Source: an uncultured Dehalococcoidia bacterium (GTDB lineage Bacteria; Chloroflexota; Dehalococcoidia; Lucifugimonadales; UBA3495). Taken from it: DNA of 64,000 bases. Positions 1-8,435 of this stretch are shown here, one piece after another (position 1 is the stretch's first letter; every line of letters begins with the position of its first letter). The stretch lies in NCBI GenBank assembly GCA_950072105.1, contig CATMOE010000002.1:1-64000 (forward strand). Direction: 5' to 3'. The translations under genes were made by a program, and so were the position numbers. A model generated the notes under the pieces. It saw only the letters and a program-made list of their open reading frames with translations. It made no database searches and was not told the DNA's origin.

Positions 1-75
1 GGGCCCGTAGCTCAGCGGTAGAGCGGTCGGCTCATAACCGATAGGTTGCTGGTTCGACACCAGCCGGGCCCACCA
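1..75 (+). tRNA. tRNA with CAT anticodon, most likely tRNA-Ile2 (lysidine-modified); elongator Met possible
   Basis: Acceptor stem GGGCCCG/CGGGCCC, discriminator A and encoded CCA (73-75); anticodon arm GTCGG-CTCATAA-CCGAT; T-arm GGTTCGA. G1-C72 pair and no GGG/CCC anticodon stem exclude the initiator; C4-G69/C5-G68 fit TilS determinants. Confidence 0.9.
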
Positions 76-327
76 CTTACATCTCTAGTCTCATAGATTT
101 ACGAAGGTTTCCAGGACATTCAATTTAGAGCCACAACTTATCTTGGTCAAGGTGTATTGAATGAGGTGAGGTGTTTGACCAGCATCAAGAGGCGAGGATA
201 TACTCTGTTTAATCTGCTGGATTAACCTACCACCCCCGGACATGGAATATCCCGACGAACTTCCTGAGTATTTGTCAGCATGGTTCTGCGAACCACTAAT
301 CGCGTTTTATAGCGGGGAATCAACCCG

Positions 328-1478
328 ATGACTTCAAGTCAATCTTCATTGGTCAAAACACAACCGATGCCTTTAGGGTTCCGTGAAGACACGCTCGTTT
401 CTAACCTTCTTCTCGATCCAAACAACCCTAGGTTGTCTGCTGCAGAACCGACCACAGACCAAGCGGAGCTAACACGGCGCTTGTGGGTTGAAATGGCTGT
501 GGATGAGCTCGTTTATTCTATTGCCTATAACAGCTACTACAAGACTGAGCCACTACTCGTCGTCCAGAACTCCGAGGGGCAGGCTGGCCCGGACTTGGAG
601 AAGATGGTTGTAATCGAAGGCAACCGACGACTTGCAGCTGTGAAGATTCTTGTTGACGACCATCTCAGAGAGACTCTAAAAATCACGTCAGCCCCAACTA
701 TCACTGAAGCCGCAAAGGCACAATTGGCCGCCTCCCAGTAATCACCTACCAGTCAAGAAAAGAGATTTGGACCTACATCGGGTTTAAACATATCAATGGT
801 CCAAAACCTTGGGATTCGTACAGCAAGGCCCATCATATTGCAACGGTTCACGAGAACTACAGCCAATCACTCGATGACATAGCTCGCCAGATAGGTGATA
901 GGCATACGACGGTACTGAGATTGTATCGTGGCTACCGCGTGCTTCAGCAGGCTCAGAAAGAGGCAGGGTTCGATATTGAGGATCGCTACAAGAGCAGGTT
1001 CGCATTCTCCCACTTATACACAGCCTTAGATCAGCCGGATTTCCTCCACTTTGTTGGCGTAGACGCCCATGCTGATCCAGACTCCCAATCAGTCCCCAAA
1101 GATAATTTATCCAACCTGTCCGAATTGATGACGTGGTTGTACGGCAAAAAGAGCCAAGGAATACAGCCGCTAGTTCATTCCCAGAACCCGGACTTAAAAA
1201 GACTTCGAGAAGCGATAGCCAATCCACAATCGTTGACTGCGTTGCGGGCTGGTCGGTCGCTCGATTTAGCACACGAATTGAGCATTCCCGACAACCGCAA
1301 ACTACGTACCGCGCTAACCTTCGCTAAGCAATATTTACAAGGGGCTAGAGGAGCTGTTGTAACTGGTTACGAAGGGGATCAAGACCTCTACGACATAGCC
1401 AAAGACATCATGATGCTCGCCAGTGCCACGTTGGGTGACATGGAGAAAGCCCGATCTTCCGGTTCCTTGAAATTATAG
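328..1478 (+). pseudogene. ParB/Srx N-terminal domain protein split by a single-base (-1) frameshift near 727-731 (about 383 aa if repaired)
   Basis: ORF 328-741 has ParB/Srx motifs LLLDPNNPRL and VVIEGNRRLAAVK. The frame of ORF 921-1478 is open from about 723 and reads LPVITYQSRKEIWTYIGFKHINGPKPWDSYSKA...LDDIARQIGD (HTH-like), continuing directly into 921-1478. Confidence 0.8.
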
Positions 1479-1487
1479 CCCGCTTTC

Positions 1488-2486
1488 ATGCCTACTCCCC
1501 TTCCGGCTCTTACAAAGGATTCAATCCAACTCGCTGATTGGATCGAGTTGCAGGCCCTAACAAGCGGTGATGGGAGTGCCAACACGGGTCAATTGGAGCG
1601 GGCTCTCCGCCGGACTGGCACCTTTGATCCAGATGCCCCCGAAGAGGGCGAGGTACCTCACGACTCAGACCATGGCTTGATCGAGGGAAAGGTCGATGAG
1701 GTATTCGCCGAGCTAGAAGACCGAGCTCAGGCGGCTGACTCAGCCTATCCTTTCGAAGTCAGCCGTGCCGAGGTAAAAACCAAAGGGCACATCGAGCAAT
1801 ACATTCCTTACGTATTTTGTTTGTGTTTGTCTATGTTCGGAGACGGTGCGAAACGGCTGAACATCCAAAAAGATGACGACGGGGACCCAGCGGACGACCT
1901 GCCAACATACCCACGCCGCTTGTTTGAGCACATAGCGACGATTGCAGCGGCGAATTACATCGGCGGCGAAGCGGTTAGGTTCGGCTCGCCAAGGCGTGGT
2001 ATGAGTCCTTCATTTATAGACGCCCTGAACGAACTCAGCTGGAGTCATCTTCACGAGGGAGACGGCTACAACAACGATCCCATATTTGGGTCCAAGGATC
2101 GCCATCTAGACATAGTTGCGTGGAAGGATTTTCCTGATCAGCGGACGAGCAAGCTGGTTCTTTTCGGGCAGTGCGCAACTAACAAAGATGACGGGTGGCA
2201 CTCCAAGAAACCAGAGCTTCAAACGGGAGTGTTTTGGGGTAATTGGATCAAGGGCGCTGCCGTCAGCGAACTAATCCGGGCATTTTTCATCCCGCACCGA
2301 GTCACATCGGAAGAATGGGATATGCATGCCAGAGAAGCAGGCCTTTTCTTCGATCGATGTCGCGTTGCCCGGTTCGCGTCCATGGCCGCAGACCGTAGTC
2401 TGACCCACGATTCGGGCGACTGGGATTCGTGTTTAGAATGGGTTAGCAAGATGATGTCTGTTGGCGAAGAGACCGCGGCAGAATGA
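1488..2486 (+). CDS. Conserved-looking hypothetical protein, putative PD-(D/E)XK-like (restriction endonuclease fold) nuclease
   Basis: 332 aa ORF; motif string RLFE...FGSPR...KDRHLDIVAWKDFPD...LVLFGQCAT...W..K resembles E..D..(Q)xC variants of the REase fold; lies between the ParB-like gene and the MTase. Confidence 0.6.
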   Translation: MPTPLPALTKDSIQLADWIELQALTSGDGSANTGQLERALRRTGTFDPDAPEEGEVPHDSDHGLIEGKVDEVFAELEDRAQAADSAYPFEVSRAEVKTKGHIEQYIPYVFCLCLSMFGDGAKRLNIQKDDDGDPADDLPTYPRRLFEHIATIAAANYIGGEAVRFGSPRRGMSPSFIDALNELSWSHLHEGDGYNNDPIFGSKDRHLDIVAWKDFPDQRTSKLVLFGQCATNKDDGWHSKKPELQTGVFWGNWIKGAAVSELIRAFFIPHRVTSEEWDMHAREAGLFFDRCRVARFASMAADRSLTHDSGDWDSCLEWVSKMMSVGEETAAE

Positions 2487-3598
2487 TGGTAAAGGGCTCA
2501 CACAGACTCCATGCTCTCTGCTCGTACTTTGCGATGTTTCCAGGATATTTTGCCCGAGGCCACATCCGCAATCATAGCGCGCCGGGTGAACTGATTTTAG
2601 ACCCCTTCAGCGGACGCGGGACTACCCTGCTAGAGAGTTTGCTTACTCAGAGGAACGCAGTCGCAAGTGACCCAAATCCGGTGGCCTATTGTATCACTCG
2701 GGCAAAAAGCAAATCCCTCCAGCCACAATCGGTTCTTGATCGTATCACCGAGCTGGAGGCAGAATTCGTCGAGACACCAACTGCGGACCTTGAGGAAGAA
2801 CGCGGGTTTCTCCCACGATTCTTCAAGCACGCCTATTACCACACTACTCTCAGAGAGATTCTGTTCCTCCGCAGACACCTCCGGTGGCATACCGATACCA
2901 TTGATTGCTTTATATCAGCTCTGCTGTTGGGGTGCCTCCATGGAGAAAGAGACAAATCTCCTTGCTACCTAAGTAATCAAATGCCCCGGCGGATCAGCAC
3001 AAAGCCAGAGTATTCCGTAAAATACTGGCGGGAACATGACCTCTACCCACATAAGAGGGCAACCTTTGAAATCTTGCGAAGGTGGTCAAGATTTAGACTG
3101 AAGCAGGGGGCGCCGCAGAAGACCGCTCTCGCTCTCCAGGAGGACGTAAGAGACTTGTCCAGGCGACTCCCGTTCATGGAGGGAAAGGTTAAAGCGGTTA
3201 TCACTTCACCTCCGTATTTCAATACGACGAGCTTCGCTGAAGACCAGTGGCTACGTTTATGGGTTCTAGGGGGCGCAAATCACCCTACACGTGCTGGAGC
3301 ATCCAAAGATGATAGGCACACATCGCGATACAAATACTGGCGATTTATCGCCGATGCCTGGCGTGGAATCGCACCCCTGTTAGCTTCCGATGCGACGATT
3401 GTTTGCCGCGTTGGGTTGCATGGTCACAGCATGGAAGACGTCTGCAGGAACATGGTGGCGTCTGTTCGCGCTAGCATCCCTAGTGCCACCCTTTACGGTA
3501 GCCCATTGTTGACGACTCCATCGGCGGATACCGGTAGGCAACAGCTATCCGAGCACAGTCAATACGGGGAGTTGGATTTCATCTTCCGTATGGCTTAG
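2483..3598 (+). CDS. Site-specific DNA amino-methyltransferase (SPPY, probably N4-cytosine)
   Basis: SAM-binding motif I LDPFSGRGTT near the N-terminus and catalytic motif IV ITSPPY downstream; ATGA overlap with the upstream stop codon. Confidence 0.85.
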   Translation: MMVKGSHRLHALCSYFAMFPGYFARGHIRNHSAPGELILDPFSGRGTTLLESLLTQRNAVASDPNPVAYCITRAKSKSLQPQSVLDRITELEAEFVETPTADLEEERGFLPRFFKHAYYHTTLREILFLRRHLRWHTDTIDCFISALLLGCLHGERDKSPCYLSNQMPRRISTKPEYSVKYWREHDLYPHKRATFEILRRWSRFRLKQGAPQKTALALQEDVRDLSRRLPFMEGKVKAVITSPPYFNTTSFAEDQWLRLWVLGGANHPTRAGASKDDRHTSRYKYWRFIADAWRGIAPLLASDATIVCRVGLHGHSMEDVCRNMVASVRASIPSATLYGSPLLTTPSADTGRQQLSEHSQYGELDFIFRMA

Positions 3599-3734
3599 TA
3601 GCCTCCCAGTCTGGGGACGGTTATCTCGGTGATAAAGGTGCTCTTTGACTGGTTCGGGATTACGGCACATAACTAGGACTAGGTTGACAGGAATGTGACA
3701 CGAGGAGCAAACCCCAGCTCCCCCCGCTATAATA

Positions 3735-3854: not shown

Positions 3855-3898
3855 GGGGTGGCCTGTCGGGCGACGGGGCCACCCCTATTCTTTAGTTT
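3855..3898 (+). terminator. Intrinsic terminator-like hairpin between the island and the convergent LLM gene
   Basis: GGGGTGGCC...GGCCACCCC stem (3855-3885) followed by T-rich TATTCTTTAGTTT on +. Confidence 0.65.
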
Positions 3899-5085
3899 CC
3901 TGCTACCGGGGTCTCTGCCTTGTGGAAGGCGGGAATCACCTCTTTGCCGAATAGCTCCATGGACTCCATCACCTTGTCGTGGGAGATGGTTTCCGTTTGC
4001 ATGATCATCATTACCTGATCTACGCCGATATCCTCGTACATCTGGACGGTCTTGATGCAGCTCTCGGGGTTTCCGGCGATGATGACACCGCGGTCGGAGA
4101 GCACATTGGCATCCAATTGGGCGATGGCCGCCCGGGCGGCGCCGGGACCGGCGTCCAAGGACAGGCCGGCTTCCTCTGCTTGTTGTTTGTGGGCATCGTC
4201 GGACTGGCGCAACCAACGGCTGAAGTCGGCGTTCAGATCATCAGGCACGCCGCCCCAGGCTTCCAATAGCTCTTCGTAGGCGTTGATGCGGCCCTGAATG
4301 TAGGGCTTGTCCGGCCCGAAGAAGGTTTTCATAGACTCGGCGGCAAGCTCCTTGGCTGCCTGGTCGTCCTTGCCGCAGTAGGCATGGACGTTGTTTCCCC
4401 AGAAATTATTGACGAAGGCGCCCACCGGCTCGGCGTCGGTTATGGCGTCGCGGTAGACTTTAACGTGTTCGGCCAGGATATCAACGGCGTAAGACGCCGA
4501 GGACAAGACGCCGATGCCCTTCTGCGCCGCCAGACGGAAGCTCTCGGTTTGGGTGCAGGCCAGGTACATCCGGGGATGGGGCTTTTGGAAGACCCGAGGG
4601 AGTATCCGCCGCGTCGGCACGTTCCAATGCTTGCCTTCCCAGGAGAACTCGTCGGATTGCCACATCTTGGGCAGCATCGTTAGGGCCTCGTCCCACCGTT
4701 CCCGGGTTTCCCGAGGGTCGATGCCCTGTCCGACCTGCTCATAGGCGTTGGACCGCCCGGTGCCGAACTCGACCCGGCCGTCGGTGAGTTGATCCACCAT
4801 AGCCACTCGTTCGGCGATATGGATGGGGTGGTGGCTGGGCAGGATGGACACGCCGAACCCGATCCTGATGTTCTTGGTCCTTTGGCTCAGCGCTCCGAAT
4901 AGGACTTCGGGACATGGAGATCCGGAGAATCCCAACAGAAAGTGGTGCTCGACGAACCAGAGGTTGTCGAACCCCAGCTGATCGGCGAGTTCACATTGGT
5001 CCAGGGTTTCTTTGTAAAGGCTGTTCCAGTCCAGGTCGTTGCCCTGATAGGGCCGCTGCGTTTCGTACAATATTCCAAATTTCAT
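3892..5085 (-). CDS. LLM class flavin-dependent oxidoreductase (luciferase-like monooxygenase)
   Basis: MKFGILYE start with AAGGAG RBS; GFDNLWFVEHHF, HPIHIAERVAMVDQLTDGRVEFGTGR and PRVFQKPHP motifs. Confidence 0.92.
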   Translation of the reverse strand: MKFGILYETQRPYQGNDLDWNSLYKETLDQCELADQLGFDNLWFVEHHFLLGFSGSPCPEVLFGALSQRTKNIRIGFGVSILPSHHPIHIAERVAMVDQLTDGRVEFGTGRSNAYEQVGQGIDPRETRERWDEALTMLPKMWQSDEFSWEGKHWNVPTRRILPRVFQKPHPRMYLACTQTESFRLAAQKGIGVLSSASYAVDILAEHVKVYRDAITDAEPVGAFVNNFWGNNVHAYCGKDDQAAKELAAESMKTFFGPDKPYIQGRINAYEELLEAWGGVPDDLNADFSRWLRQSDDAHKQQAEEAGLSLDAGPGAARAAIAQLDANVLSDRGVIIAGNPESCIKTVQMYEDIGVDQVMMIMQTETISHDKVMESMELFGKEVIPAFHKAETPVAGN

Positions 5086-5372: not shown

Positions 5373-5423
5373 GAACTCATAAGAGGGCGCCCCGATTGCA
5401 TCGGGGCGCCCTCTTATGAGTTC
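5373..5423. terminator. Perfect 24-bp inverted repeat downstream of the VOC gene
   Basis: GAACTCATAAGAGGGCGCCCCGAT-TGC-ATCGGGGCGCCCTCTTATGAGTTC, 15 nt past the stop of 5439-5930. Confidence 0.65.
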
Positions 5424-5438
5424 TAATTGTGAGAGAGG

Positions 5439-5930
5439 CTATCTTGCGGCGGCCGCTGCCAGTACTTCGTCCCAGGGGCCGGGGAAATTCCCTAGCGGCT
5501 TGTCCTCGTTCAAGAACATGTTTTCCTGCCGGAACCACTGGCTCCGGGGCGCCTCGTAATAAACCTCGATGCCATTGCCATCGGGGTCCTTAAAGTAAAT
5601 ACCCAAGGAGATGCCGTGGTCAGCGACATTAAAGTCAACGTCTTTCTCTTTGATCCTGGCGTAGAACTCCTTCAAGTCGTCCAGGCTGTCCACACGCCAG
5701 GCCATGTGGTTGAGGCCCACGCCGCGCGGCTGTACTCCGGGGGCGTCGTCGCCCACTTGCATCAATGCTACCTCGTGGGATTCGTCCAGGTTCGCTGCCA
5801 TGAAAGCGGCGCGTCCGGGCACAAAGTCATAGGTGTGCAGACCCAGTATGTCTTCGTACCACTTTTGGGAAATCTCGGCGTTTCGCACGTATATGTTAAC
5901 GTGCCCCAGATGACTCGGTGTGTAGCCCAT
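5439..5930 (-). CDS. VOC family protein (glyoxalase/extradiol dioxygenase-like)
   Basis: LGHVNIYVRN, GLNHMAW and IYFKDPDGNGIEV motifs. Confidence 0.9.
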   Translation of the reverse strand: MGYTPSHLGHVNIYVRNAEISQKWYEDILGLHTYDFVPGRAAFMAANLDESHEVALMQVGDDAPGVQPRGVGLNHMAWRVDSLDDLKEFYARIKEKDVDFNVADHGISLGIYFKDPDGNGIEVYYEAPRSQWFRQENMFLNEDKPLGNFPGPWDEVLAAAAAR

Positions 5931-6013
5931 CTTATTTCTCCCAGTTCGAGTATGAGCGCGGAAGTCTTCGGTAGTATACCATCCGTGTTATGGTCCGGTT
6001 AACGACGGGCCCG

Positions 6014-6334
6014 TCACGGTCTTGTTCGTTTTTGATACCGGCGCGGCAGGGGTTGTTTCAACTCGCGCATCTTGTTTCGCCAGGTATCGTCGTGGCCGTG
6101 GTTGGGCGTCAATATGTGGGCGTATTCGTGCCAGAGAAGCCGTGACGGCCGTCCGGTAGCGGTGTAGATGCGTTTGGCCGACAAGACGCAGATCCAGCCG
6201 AAGCTGCTGTCTTTTTTCATGTTATGAGCATGAGCTTGGGCCCTAAACCTAGAGCCTGGTCCCCGGTCCACTCAACCGCCGACGAAAACGCCCTTCACCT
6301 CGGGCCACATGGACAGGTCAATACCCTGGTCCAT
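6014..6334 (-). CDS. Small HExxH (SprT-like zincin) protein with in-frame UGA at codon 21; candidate selenoprotein
   Basis: AGGAG RBS plus ATG at 6334; reads [23 protein letters not shown](6272-6274)[16 protein letters not shown]...[16 protein letters not shown]; hairpin 15 nt after the UGA. Confidence 0.65.
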
Positions 6335-6409
6335 CGAAATCTCCTGAATTTATGGCCTTCGAATCACAACCAGCGATTCGGACAGCCTAATCGCGAGCGG
6401 CCAGCCCTT

Positions 6410-6829
6410 TTAGGGAGACGTCTGCCACCCAGATTCGGACATGTCGATGATGACGCCATCCGGTCCGCTGAACTTTACCTCGGCGTTGCTGCGCGCCTTG
6501 CCGTTGCCGAATAGTCCGCCCGTTCCAGGCATCATCGTGGGGGTCAACTGCTTGCCGCCGGCCTTGTTGACCTTCTCGGCGAAGGAATCGATATCCTCCA
6601 CAAGGAAGCCGATGTGATGGATGCCGCCAAACTCCAGGCCGTTGGCGCCCAAGTCAGCGTCGTCATCTGTCTTAAAATTCAGGATGGCCATGTTGAAGTC
6701 CCCGTCGCTGAGGAAGACCTGCCCTTTAGCGTCCCTTCGGACCTCTTCTAGCCCGAATACTTCTTTGTAGAACTCGGCAGTTTTGCCCGGGTCCCTGGTT
6801 GTCAGAGCGAAATGTTTGATCTTTACCAT
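6410..6829 (-). CDS. VOC family protein (glyoxalase-like)
   Basis: KIKHFAL, FYKEVFGL, GIHHIGFLVED and GPDGVIIDMSE motifs; AAGGAG RBS. Confidence 0.9.
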   Translation of the reverse strand: MVKIKHFALTTRDPGKTAEFYKEVFGLEEVRRDAKGQVFLSDGDFNMAILNFKTDDDADLGANGLEFGGIHHIGFLVEDIDSFAEKVNKAGGKQLTPTMMPGTGGLFGNGKARSNAEVKFSGPDGVIIDMSESGWQTSP

Positions 6830-6932: not shown

Positions 6933-8435
6933 TCAGCCTCTGGCTCTTTCCACCGCCCGTTGCCAGCCCGAGTAAAGTTCGTCTCTTACACTTGGGTCCA
7001 TCCTTGGCTCGTAACGGCGGGAAAGCCGCCAATGTCGCGAGACAGCGTCTTGGTCATCCCAGAAGCCAACCGCCAACCCGGCCAGATAGGCGGCGCCCAG
7101 AGCGGTGGTCTCAGCCACTTCAGGGACCTCCACAGGTACCCCTAACTGGTCGGCCTGGAACTGCATCAAGAACGAGTTGGCGGAGCCGCCACCGTCGGCC
7201 CGAAGCACGGGCATCTTGATTCCAGTGTCCCGCTCCATGGCCTCTACAACGTCCCGCGCTTGATAGGCGATAGCCTCCAATGTAGCCCGGACGATATGCG
7301 CCCGGTTGGTGCCTCTAGTCAGCCCGGTAATCGTCCCCCGGGCCTCGGCATCCCAGTGGGGCGCGCCTAGTCCGGTGAACGCGGGGACGAAGAACACCCC
7401 GCCCGTATCGGCAACCGATTCGGCCAGCGCCTCTGTTTCCCCGGCGTCGCGGATAATACCCAATCCATCTCGTAGCCATTGGACCGCGGAGCCAGTGTTG
7501 AAGATGCTCCCTTCCAAAGCATACTGGACTTGGAGAGACGCTTGCCGCCAGGCGATGGTGGTCAAGAGACCCGAGGACGAGGCAACTGGCCGTTGGCCGG
7601 TTTGCATCAGCAAAAACGAGCCTGTGCCGTAAGTGTTCTTGACCATTCCCGGTTGAAAACAAGCTTGTCCGAACAGGGCGGCGTGCTGGTCTCCCGCCAA
7701 GCTGGTGATAGGGATCGGCGACCCGAATAGGGCGGGGTCTGTCTCGCCAAAGAATCCGCTGGTTGGTAGAACCTGGGGCAGCATTGCCTCGGGTATCCGC
7801 ATGTATTCCAGAAGGTCATCGTCCCAGGATTCGGTGTGGATGTTGAACAGCATCGTGCGAGAAGCGTTGGTGATGTCGGTGGCGTGCATCCCTCCTCCCG
7901 TGAAGCGATGGAGGAGCCAAGAGTCGACGGTGCCCGCGCTCAGCTCGCCCGCTTCCCCGCGCTTCTGCCCGTCTTTAGTGTGGTCCAAGATCCACCTGAT
8001 CTTGGTGCCAGAGAAGTAAGGGTCGATGACCAGCCCTGTCCTCTGTCTGACCAGGGGATCCAGCCCATCCAGGCTCATCTGTTGGCATAGAGGTGCAGTG
8101 CGCCGGCATTGCCAGACAACGGCTTGCCCCACCGGGACACCGTTGGCCTTATCCCACACAACAGTGGTTTCCCGCTGGTTGGTGATGCCCATGGCCGCTA
8201 CCTGATCTGCTTGAATGCCGGCCAGCGACATCGCTTCGCGGCTGACGGCCAGGGTCGATTGGAACAGTTCCTCCGGGTCGTGGCTGACCCAGCCTGGTTC
8301 AGGATAGTGCTGGGTGATCTCCCGGTCGGCAGTTGCCACCACACGTCCGTCATGGTCGAAAATAAACGCGGCCGACCCGGTGGTGCCTTGGTCGACCGCC
8401 AATATGAAACTCTGGCTATTTAGTTGTTGCGCCAT
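6933..8435 (-). CDS. glpK: Glycerol kinase
   Basis: DQGTTGS, GITNQRETTVVW, YFSGTKIRW, TNASRTMLFNI, GDQHAALFGQ and KNTYGTG motifs. Confidence 0.95.
   Translation of the reverse strand: MAQQLNSQSFILAVDQGTTGSAAFIFDHDGRVVATADREITQHYPEPGWVSHDPEELFQSTLAVSREAMSLAGIQADQVAAMGITNQRETTVVWDKANGVPVGQAVVWQCRRTAPLCQQMSLDGLDPLVRQRTGLVIDPYFSGTKIRWILDHTKDGQKRGEAGELSAGTVDSWLLHRFTGGGMHATDITNASRTMLFNIHTESWDDDLLEYMRIPEAMLPQVLPTSGFFGETDPALFGSPIPITSLAGDQHAALFGQACFQPGMVKNTYGTGSFLLMQTGQRPVASSSGLLTTIAWRQASLQVQYALEGSIFNTGSAVQWLRDGLGIIRDAGETEALAESVADTGGVFFVPAFTGLGAPHWDAEARGTITGLTRGTNRAHIVRATLEAIAYQARDVVEAMERDTGIKMPVLRADGGGSANSFLMQFQADQLGVPVEVPEVAETTALGAAYLAGLAVGFWDDQDAVSRHWRLSRRYEPRMDPSVRDELYSGWQRAVERARG

Follow-up and report, generated by a model that had tools for sequence, protein, structure and literature searches.

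The gene under study lies on the reverse strand of the window, by which we mean the whole stretch of 64,000 nucleotides that was analysed, from the genome of an uncultured Dehalococcoidia bacterium (G000; assembly of 164 contigs, 6% contamination). The sequencing runs containing this stretch were marine. The mechanical open reading frame started at GTG 6271, right after a TGA at 6274-6272, and had no ribosome-binding site. The initial annotation had placed the start at ATG 6334 instead, behind an AGGAG at 6345-6341, and had read through this sole in-frame TGA to a product of 106 aa; all of these coordinates were correct. The gene has the following features.

6014..6334, minus strand: gene of the predicted HExxH selenoprotein, 106 aa with selenocysteine (Sec) as residue 21 (sequence, homologs, purifying selection)
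6341..6345, minus strand: ribosome-binding site AGGAG, 6 nt ahead of ATG 6334 (sequence)
6272..6274, minus strand: in-frame TGA taken as Sec, residue 21 (Cys in homologs; TGA in genomes G035, G010 and G1013 and in metagenome loci)
6238..6257, minus strand: bSECIS-like hairpin, core stem 6256-6251 with 6244-6239, loop 6250-6245 (folding, conservation, published rules)
6014-6016, minus strand: terminal stop TGA (sequence)

The terminal TGA was peculiar to the window's strain; its relatives had Ser there, five more residues and then TAA. The ATG of 6334 was missing in several relatives, which had an in-frame GTG 14 codons farther upstream instead. This GTG overlapped the stop codon of the upstream gene, which belongs to the VOC family, and the overlap suggests that the two genes may be translationally coupled in these relatives.

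The residue at column 21 was compared among homologs of the protein. It was Cys in all 118 close homologs that had a residue there (120 listed of 217 found) and in all 148 distant homologs that had one (two gaps; best 150 of 742 representatives), and nowhere the Trp, Gly or Arg that the initial annotation had named as signs against Sec. The two listed close homologs without a residue at column 21 were the closest matches (93% and 89%), and both began at residue 22, as would the product of a gene caller working behind the TGA. Homologs that started behind the column were solely such database calls of the TGA clade itself, plus P0287. The latter, whose DNA was searched for without success, is 58% identical and was called from the residue next after column 21; it may represent another, independent lineage with TGA, or its contig may end there. 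At the DNA level, 119 loci were read, of which nine without the motif were left out; codon 21 of the other 110 was TGC (56), TGT (38) or TGA (16), with no other codon. The 16 TGA loci, which include the window's own and three identical over the 93 nt compared, gave seven distinct TGA sequences.

The TGA was present in G035 and G010, the other two genomes of the genus, and among 100 genomes of the family there were three strong matches, each with one TGA. It was also found at the same locus and in the same clade in G1013, a genome labelled as another family, whose contig may be mis-binned or transferred (8% contamination). Among metagenome loci, forms with as little as 82% amino-acid identity still had TGA, in a search of the best 80 of 280 matches that may miss distant TGA forms. 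Metatranscriptome contigs from three runs spanned the TGA with zero differing letters, which indicates presence in an RNA library and not a level of transcription, and the raw reads of X22, a related strain at a depth of about 4, carried little weight for the TGA. Independent sequences from other genomes, metagenome loci and metatranscriptome contigs thus had TGA at this codon, and not TGC, TGT or TGG. A sequencing or assembly error, about which the initial annotation had worried, is excluded, because the TGA recurs in metagenome loci as well as in G035, G010 and G1013, and the contigs of three RNA runs cross it unchanged.

A quick tree, built on few columns with column 21 masked, placed the 10 TGA rows in one branch (SH-aLRT 92) nested among 99 Cys rows. 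Since the TGA forms make up one clade, they point to one evolutionary event. The nearest Cys relatives often had TGT, one base off TGA, and Cys was retained in the Sec-using relatives G890, G208 and G260. A second origin of Sec was considered in G233 and G326, where the flagged TGAs proved to be terminal stops.

Coding constraint was found ahead of the UGA and behind it. When six TGA forms (76-96% nucleotide identity) were compared, none of the 25 nonsynonymous sites of residues 10-20 differed in any of the 15 pairs, while 0 to 7 of the 8 synonymous sites differed, and 3 to 7 of them between the two main branches; residues 1-9 were not conserved. Behind the UGA, comparison of G000 with G010 over residues 34-106 gave 11.8 differences at 169 nonsynonymous sites and 30.2 at 50 synonymous sites, showing purifying selection. 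An unchanged stretch with differing silent sites is a pattern that would not be seen upstream of a true stop, which argues that translation passes the UGA. The alternative, in which the TGA is a true stop and the locus is a pseudogene or a gene starting behind it at 6271 or Met39, agrees with the database calls, as the 28 members listed for clusters 1 and 2 were all called with 68-96 aa from Val22 or Met39, and with the existence of one degenerate copy, P0244. However, it leaves the constancy of residues 10-20 under near-saturated silent change and the selection on residues 34-106 without a reason, its start at 6271 has no ribosome-binding site, and the cut would lose a core strand together with an invariant residue. 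We regard it as very improbable.

The initial annotation had drawn a stem-loop at 6256-6239 whose loop starts with G, 22 nt after the UGA. This hairpin was present in the MFE and centroid structures of two of three folding windows, but its closing A-U pair was not conserved, being A-C in 4 of the 7 distinct TGA sequences. The element is therefore better read as a stem of 6 bp and a loop of six bases whose second base is G, 21 nt after the UGA. The rules given in PMC13188914 ask for a loop of 3-9 nt, a stem of 4-16 bp, a G among the first two loop places, a distance of 16-37 nt from the UGA and an energy of at most -7.5 kcal/mol, and the hairpin fits them (a stem of 6-7 bp, a loop of 4 or 6 nt, 21-22 nt from the UGA, and -9.6 kcal/mol on its own). 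Its stability did not exceed that of shuffled sequences in the three folding windows (z = -0.01, 0.54 and 0.09), and a simplified bSECIS rule was passed by 1587 of the 26620 open-flank TGAs of the genome (6.0%). Stability as a stand-alone proof was therefore dropped, and the case rests on conservation and not on the fold.

In the register that pairs positions 15-21 with 28-34 after the UGA, 5 of the 7 TGA sequences formed seven stem pairs and the other 2 formed six, whereas seven pairs occurred in none and six in 5 of the 83 Cys sequences. The loop start AGGU was found in 7/7 TGA sequences versus 2/83 Cys sequences. The 11 Cys sequences encoding the same five-residue peptide had at most five stem pairs, and the near Cys sister L050 had the same loop but, through two silent changes, a mismatched C-C in its stem at the place of the TGA clade's U-A pair. 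Under the codon usage of the genome, the chance that this peptide yields a 6-bp stem was 0.041, and for stem plus loop 0.0044, both calculated for a structure picked after it had been seen. No two-sided compensatory change was found in the hairpin among the few and close TGA sequences, which showed a single U-G to U-A change. The hairpin bases also encode conserved residues, and 24 of the 83 Cys windows folded as well as or better than the weakest TGA window.

Genes for Sec insertion were looked for in the genomes carrying the TGA. G000 had the complete set, namely tRNA-Sec (selC), selA, selB and selD, all above the cut-offs, so the lack of machinery that the initial annotation had allowed for does not apply. 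The selD gene of G000 itself contains a TGA. Both selA and selB were found in G010 and G035, and selA in G1013. The only tRNA found with a UCA anticodon was tRNA-Sec, which speaks against a selenium-free reading of the UGA, with a near-cognate tRNA or a non-standard code giving Cys or Trp. Such a reading would suit the ancestral Cys and the frequent TGT of the nearest relatives. Yet all four Trp codons of the gene are TGG, its own terminator is TGA, the SECIS-like hairpin arose together with the TGA and the machinery for Sec is complete, so it is scarcely credible. Judging from these comparisons, selenium would almost certainly be inserted at residue 21.

The surroundings of the gene were compared among the TGA forms, with the following features in the window.

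6933..8435, minus strand: gene of the FGGY family (glycerol-kinase-like), second gene upstream (synteny; Pfam FGGY on the copy in G035)
6410..6829, minus strand: VOC/glyoxalase-family gene upstream, conserved neighbour of the TGA forms (Pfam PF00903, synteny)
5973..6002, minus strand: extended -10 promoter-like site ahead of the downstream VOC gene (consensus match only)
5439..5930, minus strand: VOC/glyoxalase-family gene downstream, conserved neighbour (Pfam, synteny)
3892..5085, minus strand: luciferase-like monooxygenase gene, two genes downstream (Pfam PF00296 on the relatives' copies, synteny)

The order kinase, VOC, selenoprotein gene, VOC and luciferase-like monooxygenase was fixed around the TGA forms, and the upstream VOC gene is probably co-transcribed with the selenoprotein gene. 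Four promoter-like sites were found, against 1.7 expected from shuffles. In G008, a genome of another genus, the kinase and VOC genes were kept with an unrelated gene next to them, an arrangement consistent with an insertion in an ancestor of the genus. The family itself was patchy: in the class, 8 of 401 genomes had a match, and in the order 14 of 401, many of these matches being weak. Viral contigs held 26 loci, of which 21 were readable and all Cys, and no match was found in 50,697 records of cultured phages. A selection of the 128 neighbouring proteins was scanned together with three added ones, 104 in all, and most of these had no Pfam match; the matches obtained were to DUF932, RadC, ArdC, DNA methylases, ERF, YqaJ and a few metabolic genes. 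DUF932, RadC, ArdC, DNA methylases, ERF and YqaJ are typical of mobile DNA. A mobile origin of the gene is likely. Its codon usage was ordinary for the genome (46th percentile), and foreign usage as a sign of recent transfer was absent. To link the kinase and glyoxalase-like neighbours to repair of DNA-protein crosslinks is speculation.

Three further observations concern mobile DNA and the window. The Cys forms L033, L054, L056, L059, L063, L065, L071 and L074 lie on Dehalococcoidales-like contigs, where they belong to a conserved block of small genes that have no Pfam match and are perhaps a mobile element. A perfect 20-bp inverted repeat lies at 5376-5420, between the downstream VOC and luciferase-like genes. 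Positions 1-3600 of the window hold a tRNA-Met (1-75), then a gene that looks like a ParB-type one, in two pieces at 328-741 and 921-1478, and another that looks like a DNA methylase gene; this part, labelled by eye, is a probable island at the tRNA.

The fold of the protein was analysed with a structure model (pLDDT 92.6), which had strands at residues 15-18, 34-36 and 47-50 and helices at 65-75 and 83-91. Its structural neighbours were abylysin (Z 5.8, rmsd 3.0, 82 aligned), SPRTN (5.0), selecase (5.0) and Wss1 (4.2), where a Z under 8 may reflect merely a common arrangement. The top fold matches were all zincins; those of Foldseek, the best of them above E 0.001, included phage SprT-like proteins and MMP domains, the latter in many weak rows at E 0.27 and higher. 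Pfam SprT-like (PF10263) matched only residues 65-96 (15.9 bits, E 0.012), below the gathering score of 25.6. The description as an SprT-like zincin in the initial annotation therefore holds as a resemblance, with the Pfam score below the cut-off and the fold matches middling. NCBIfam gave zero families at E up to 1 for the protein, with a best E of 0.083 among 72 members; PHROGs gave solely unnamed families, over the HExxH part; and the three PDB rows obtained by sequence (best E 0.57) were not significant. The positions proposed to bind metal are as follows.

6116..6130, minus strand: HExxH motif His69-Glu70-His73, on a predicted helix (homologs, model)
6092..6094, minus strand: His81, probable third ligand of the catalytic zinc (120/120 close homologs, listed of 217; 148/150 distant, best of 742)
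6224..6232, minus strand: His35-x-His37, middle predicted strand 34-36, candidate ligands of a second metal (homologs, model)
6188..6190, minus strand: Cys49 (TGC), candidate fourth ligand or redox partner of Sec21 (120/120 close homologs, of 217; 150/150 distant, best of 742)

The role of His81 as a zinc ligand is presumed from zincins in general. His79 was present in only 63 of the best 150 of 742 distant relatives, versus 148 for His81, and Thr76 replaces Gly. Metzincins are defined by the motif HExxHxxGxxH, which the protein does not have. With SprT-like proteins and minigluzincins (PF10263; abylysin 4JIU, selecase 4QHF, SPRTN 6MDX and Wss1 5XBN) it shares a domain of about 100 aa, three strands and two helices, HExxH with a downstream His, basic charge and occurrence in phages. 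The predicted pI was 10.3, and at least 9.5 in 106 of 120 homologs (listed of 217); by analogy, this charge would fit a DNA-activated proteolysis as in Wss1 and SPRTN. The protein very probably has a zincin fold with a protease-type site.

Unlike the SprT-like sequences L231, L233 and L234, the family has an additional invariant set, Cys/Sec-x13-His-x-His-x11-Cys. His35 and His37 were each present in 120/120 close homologs (listed of 217) and in 148/150 and 149/150 distant ones (best of 742), and Cys or Sec at 21, His35, His37 and Cys49 occurred together in 292 of 309 proteins, also in very distant relatives. A distant family (L227, L228 and L229, in G1005, G944 and G1042) had the same set of Cys, His-x-His, Cys and HExxH; behind it comes a hydrophobic stretch that probably spans the membrane.

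In MMPs, the structural zinc ligands lie on the loop and strands on which these candidate ligands would also lie. The offsets from His69 were -48 (Sec21), -34 (His35), -32 (His37) and -20 (Cys49), and the spacing resembles that of the structural zinc ligands His168, Asp170, His183 and His196 of MMP-1, which according to PMC10659029 lie -50, -48, -35 and -22 from His218, an analogy and not a membership. In comparison with the MMP catalytic domain (MMP-1, MMP-12, karilysin), the protein is far smaller, its invariant third His comes two residues later, and its candidate ligands are Sec, His, His and Cys. Matrixins were fetched from the phylum in 0 of 121 genomes at 1e-20 and in 11 of 301 at 1e-9; the nine matrixin segments examined were without the structural zinc ligands.

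A tetrahedral metal site requires four residues, as many as are equally invariant here, and a second metal site is the favoured role of Sec21. If Sec is inserted, the conservation pattern leans towards its standing in for a Cys ligand of that site, together with His35, His37 and Cys49. PMC13188914 describes formate dehydrogenase and NiFeSe hydrogenase, in which Sec likewise replaces a Cys metal ligand; those are redox enzymes with Mo/W or Ni, whereas here the metal would be zinc-like and the fold that of a hydrolase.

Two other roles of Sec21 were weighed. The inserted Sec might be a ligand of the catalytic zinc in the manner of a cysteine switch, keeping the enzyme latent until oxidation or binding of DNA displaces it. 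In zincins, a strand borders the active-site cleft, and the loop 21-33 would precede this strand. The basic charge of the protein and its homologs would agree with a switch, as would the neighbour Wss1, which PMC4559962 reports to be under cysteine-switch and DNA control. However, the switch residue of Wss1, Cys226, is elsewhere in the chain according to the same source, residue 21 comes after a core strand and not in a removable pro-piece, and the equally invariant His35, His37 and Cys49 would be left unexplained; such a switch is unlikely. Alternatively, Sec21 might form a selenenyl-sulfide redox pair with Cys49, in which case the HExxH site would be regulated by the pair or have another activity. 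There are just two Cys-type residues, both invariant, the neighbouring genes encode VOC proteins and a flavin monooxygenase, and PMC13188914 ascribes a presumed redox function to most of the selenoproteins it catalogues. Against this pair, the two residues are 28 apart without a CxxU or UxxC motif or a thioredoxin fold, His35 and His37 would need another role, and the Cys homologs lie among unrelated neighbours, which makes it rather improbable.

The reading with a second metal site can be set out as follows. The ribosome would start at 6334, and Sec-tRNA would be delivered by SelB sitting on the hairpin, 15-34 nt downstream of the UGA, giving a 106-aa protein with Sec21. This product would be a small, basic, probably cytoplasmic HExxH zinc-metallopeptidase-like domain, with its catalytic zinc on His69, His73 and His81 and with Glu70 as the base. 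Sec21, in place of the invariant Cys, would bind a second, structural or regulatory metal with His35, His37 and Cys49. The family appears to be frequent in phage and mobile-element DNA, from which one selenoprotein-rich marine Chloroflexota lineage may have fixed the gene in a chromosomal VOC cluster; in that lineage a Cys codon would have become TGA, and silent changes would have closed the hairpin. That Sec is inserted at the UGA of a zincin-type protein is very probable, and its role as a metal ligand is the weaker step. The fullest form of the proposal, a first zinc-metallopeptidase selenoprotein that is a DNA-binding SprT-like protease derived from mobile DNA, with Sec among the ligands of a second zinc site by which the enzyme is tuned or switched, is tentative.

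The gene shares with known bacterial selenoproteins a UGA at a conserved Cys column, a hairpin in the coding region, a selA-D host and Cys homologs elsewhere, and differs from them in having no redox motif and Sec in one clade only. Table 1 of PMC13188914, with 119 families and subfamilies, has no HExxH or zincin peptidase; no zincin selenoprotein is added in the accessible part of the deep-Sep report (PMC12013277); and the accessible text and supplement of BSepDB (PMC13326102) have no SprT, peptidase or zincin entry. No report of this family was found in a literature search that mostly covered papers available without subscription. With no NCBIfam match and no zincin in the 119-family catalogue as tabulated, the remark in the initial annotation that this is not a classical selenoprotein family stands, and a real, uncatalogued selenoprotein family of narrow range, with Sec in one clade, is strongly supported. 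New bacterial selenoprotein families appear regularly; the novelty here is the zincin hydrolase fold outside the families of that table, and a second distinguishing point is that Sec is probably a zinc ligand and not a redox centre. If this is true, Sec was recruited for a non-redox hydrolase in a recent and traceable conversion from Cys, with a SECIS built by silent changes. One Sec clade among many Cys forms, with near sisters one pair short, offers a compact natural test case for the way in which a Cys codon and a SECIS come about together, and for what selenium contributes to a metal site. In the public databases the TGA clade appears only as truncated hypothetical proteins.

The other in-frame TGAs of G000 were surveyed as well. 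A strict and incomplete genome scan for TGAs with a hairpin and coding-like flanks gave 24 candidates; the gene studied here failed its codon filter and was present in a looser list. Of 18 frames scanned for families (16 from the strict list and two from the looser one), 15 matched catalogued selenoprotein families, one was thiolase-like and two had no match. The catalogued matches were to DUF3179, GrdB (three), GrdA, UGSC, thioredoxin-like, rhodanese-like (three), BtuF-like, AhpD-like, deiodinase-like, CC/Se and peroxiredoxin-like families. The selenoproteome of G000 is thus rich, comprising SelD and no fewer than 15 TGA genes that belong to catalogued families, and GrdA with three GrdB-type reductase subunits was unexpected for a marine organism. 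Two Dehalococcoidia are among the ten richest selenoproteomes of BSepDB (PMC13326102).

These marine Chloroflexota probably conceal more uncatalogued selenoproteins. The thiolase-like gene (PF22691; G000:C1:196444-197565, plus strand; loci L196 and L201-L203) contains a TGA in frame, followed by a hairpin; the TGA was kept in G035 and in the other-genus G008 (87% identity), and a paralogue in G000 has Cys there. Thiolases are missing from Table 1 of PMC13188914, and the gene is a candidate for a second new selenoprotein family. One further frame of 92 aa (G000:C6:86764-87039, plus strand; locus L195), which had no Pfam or NCBIfam match, combines an in-frame TGA, a hairpin and coding-like codons, and possibly encodes another selenoprotein.
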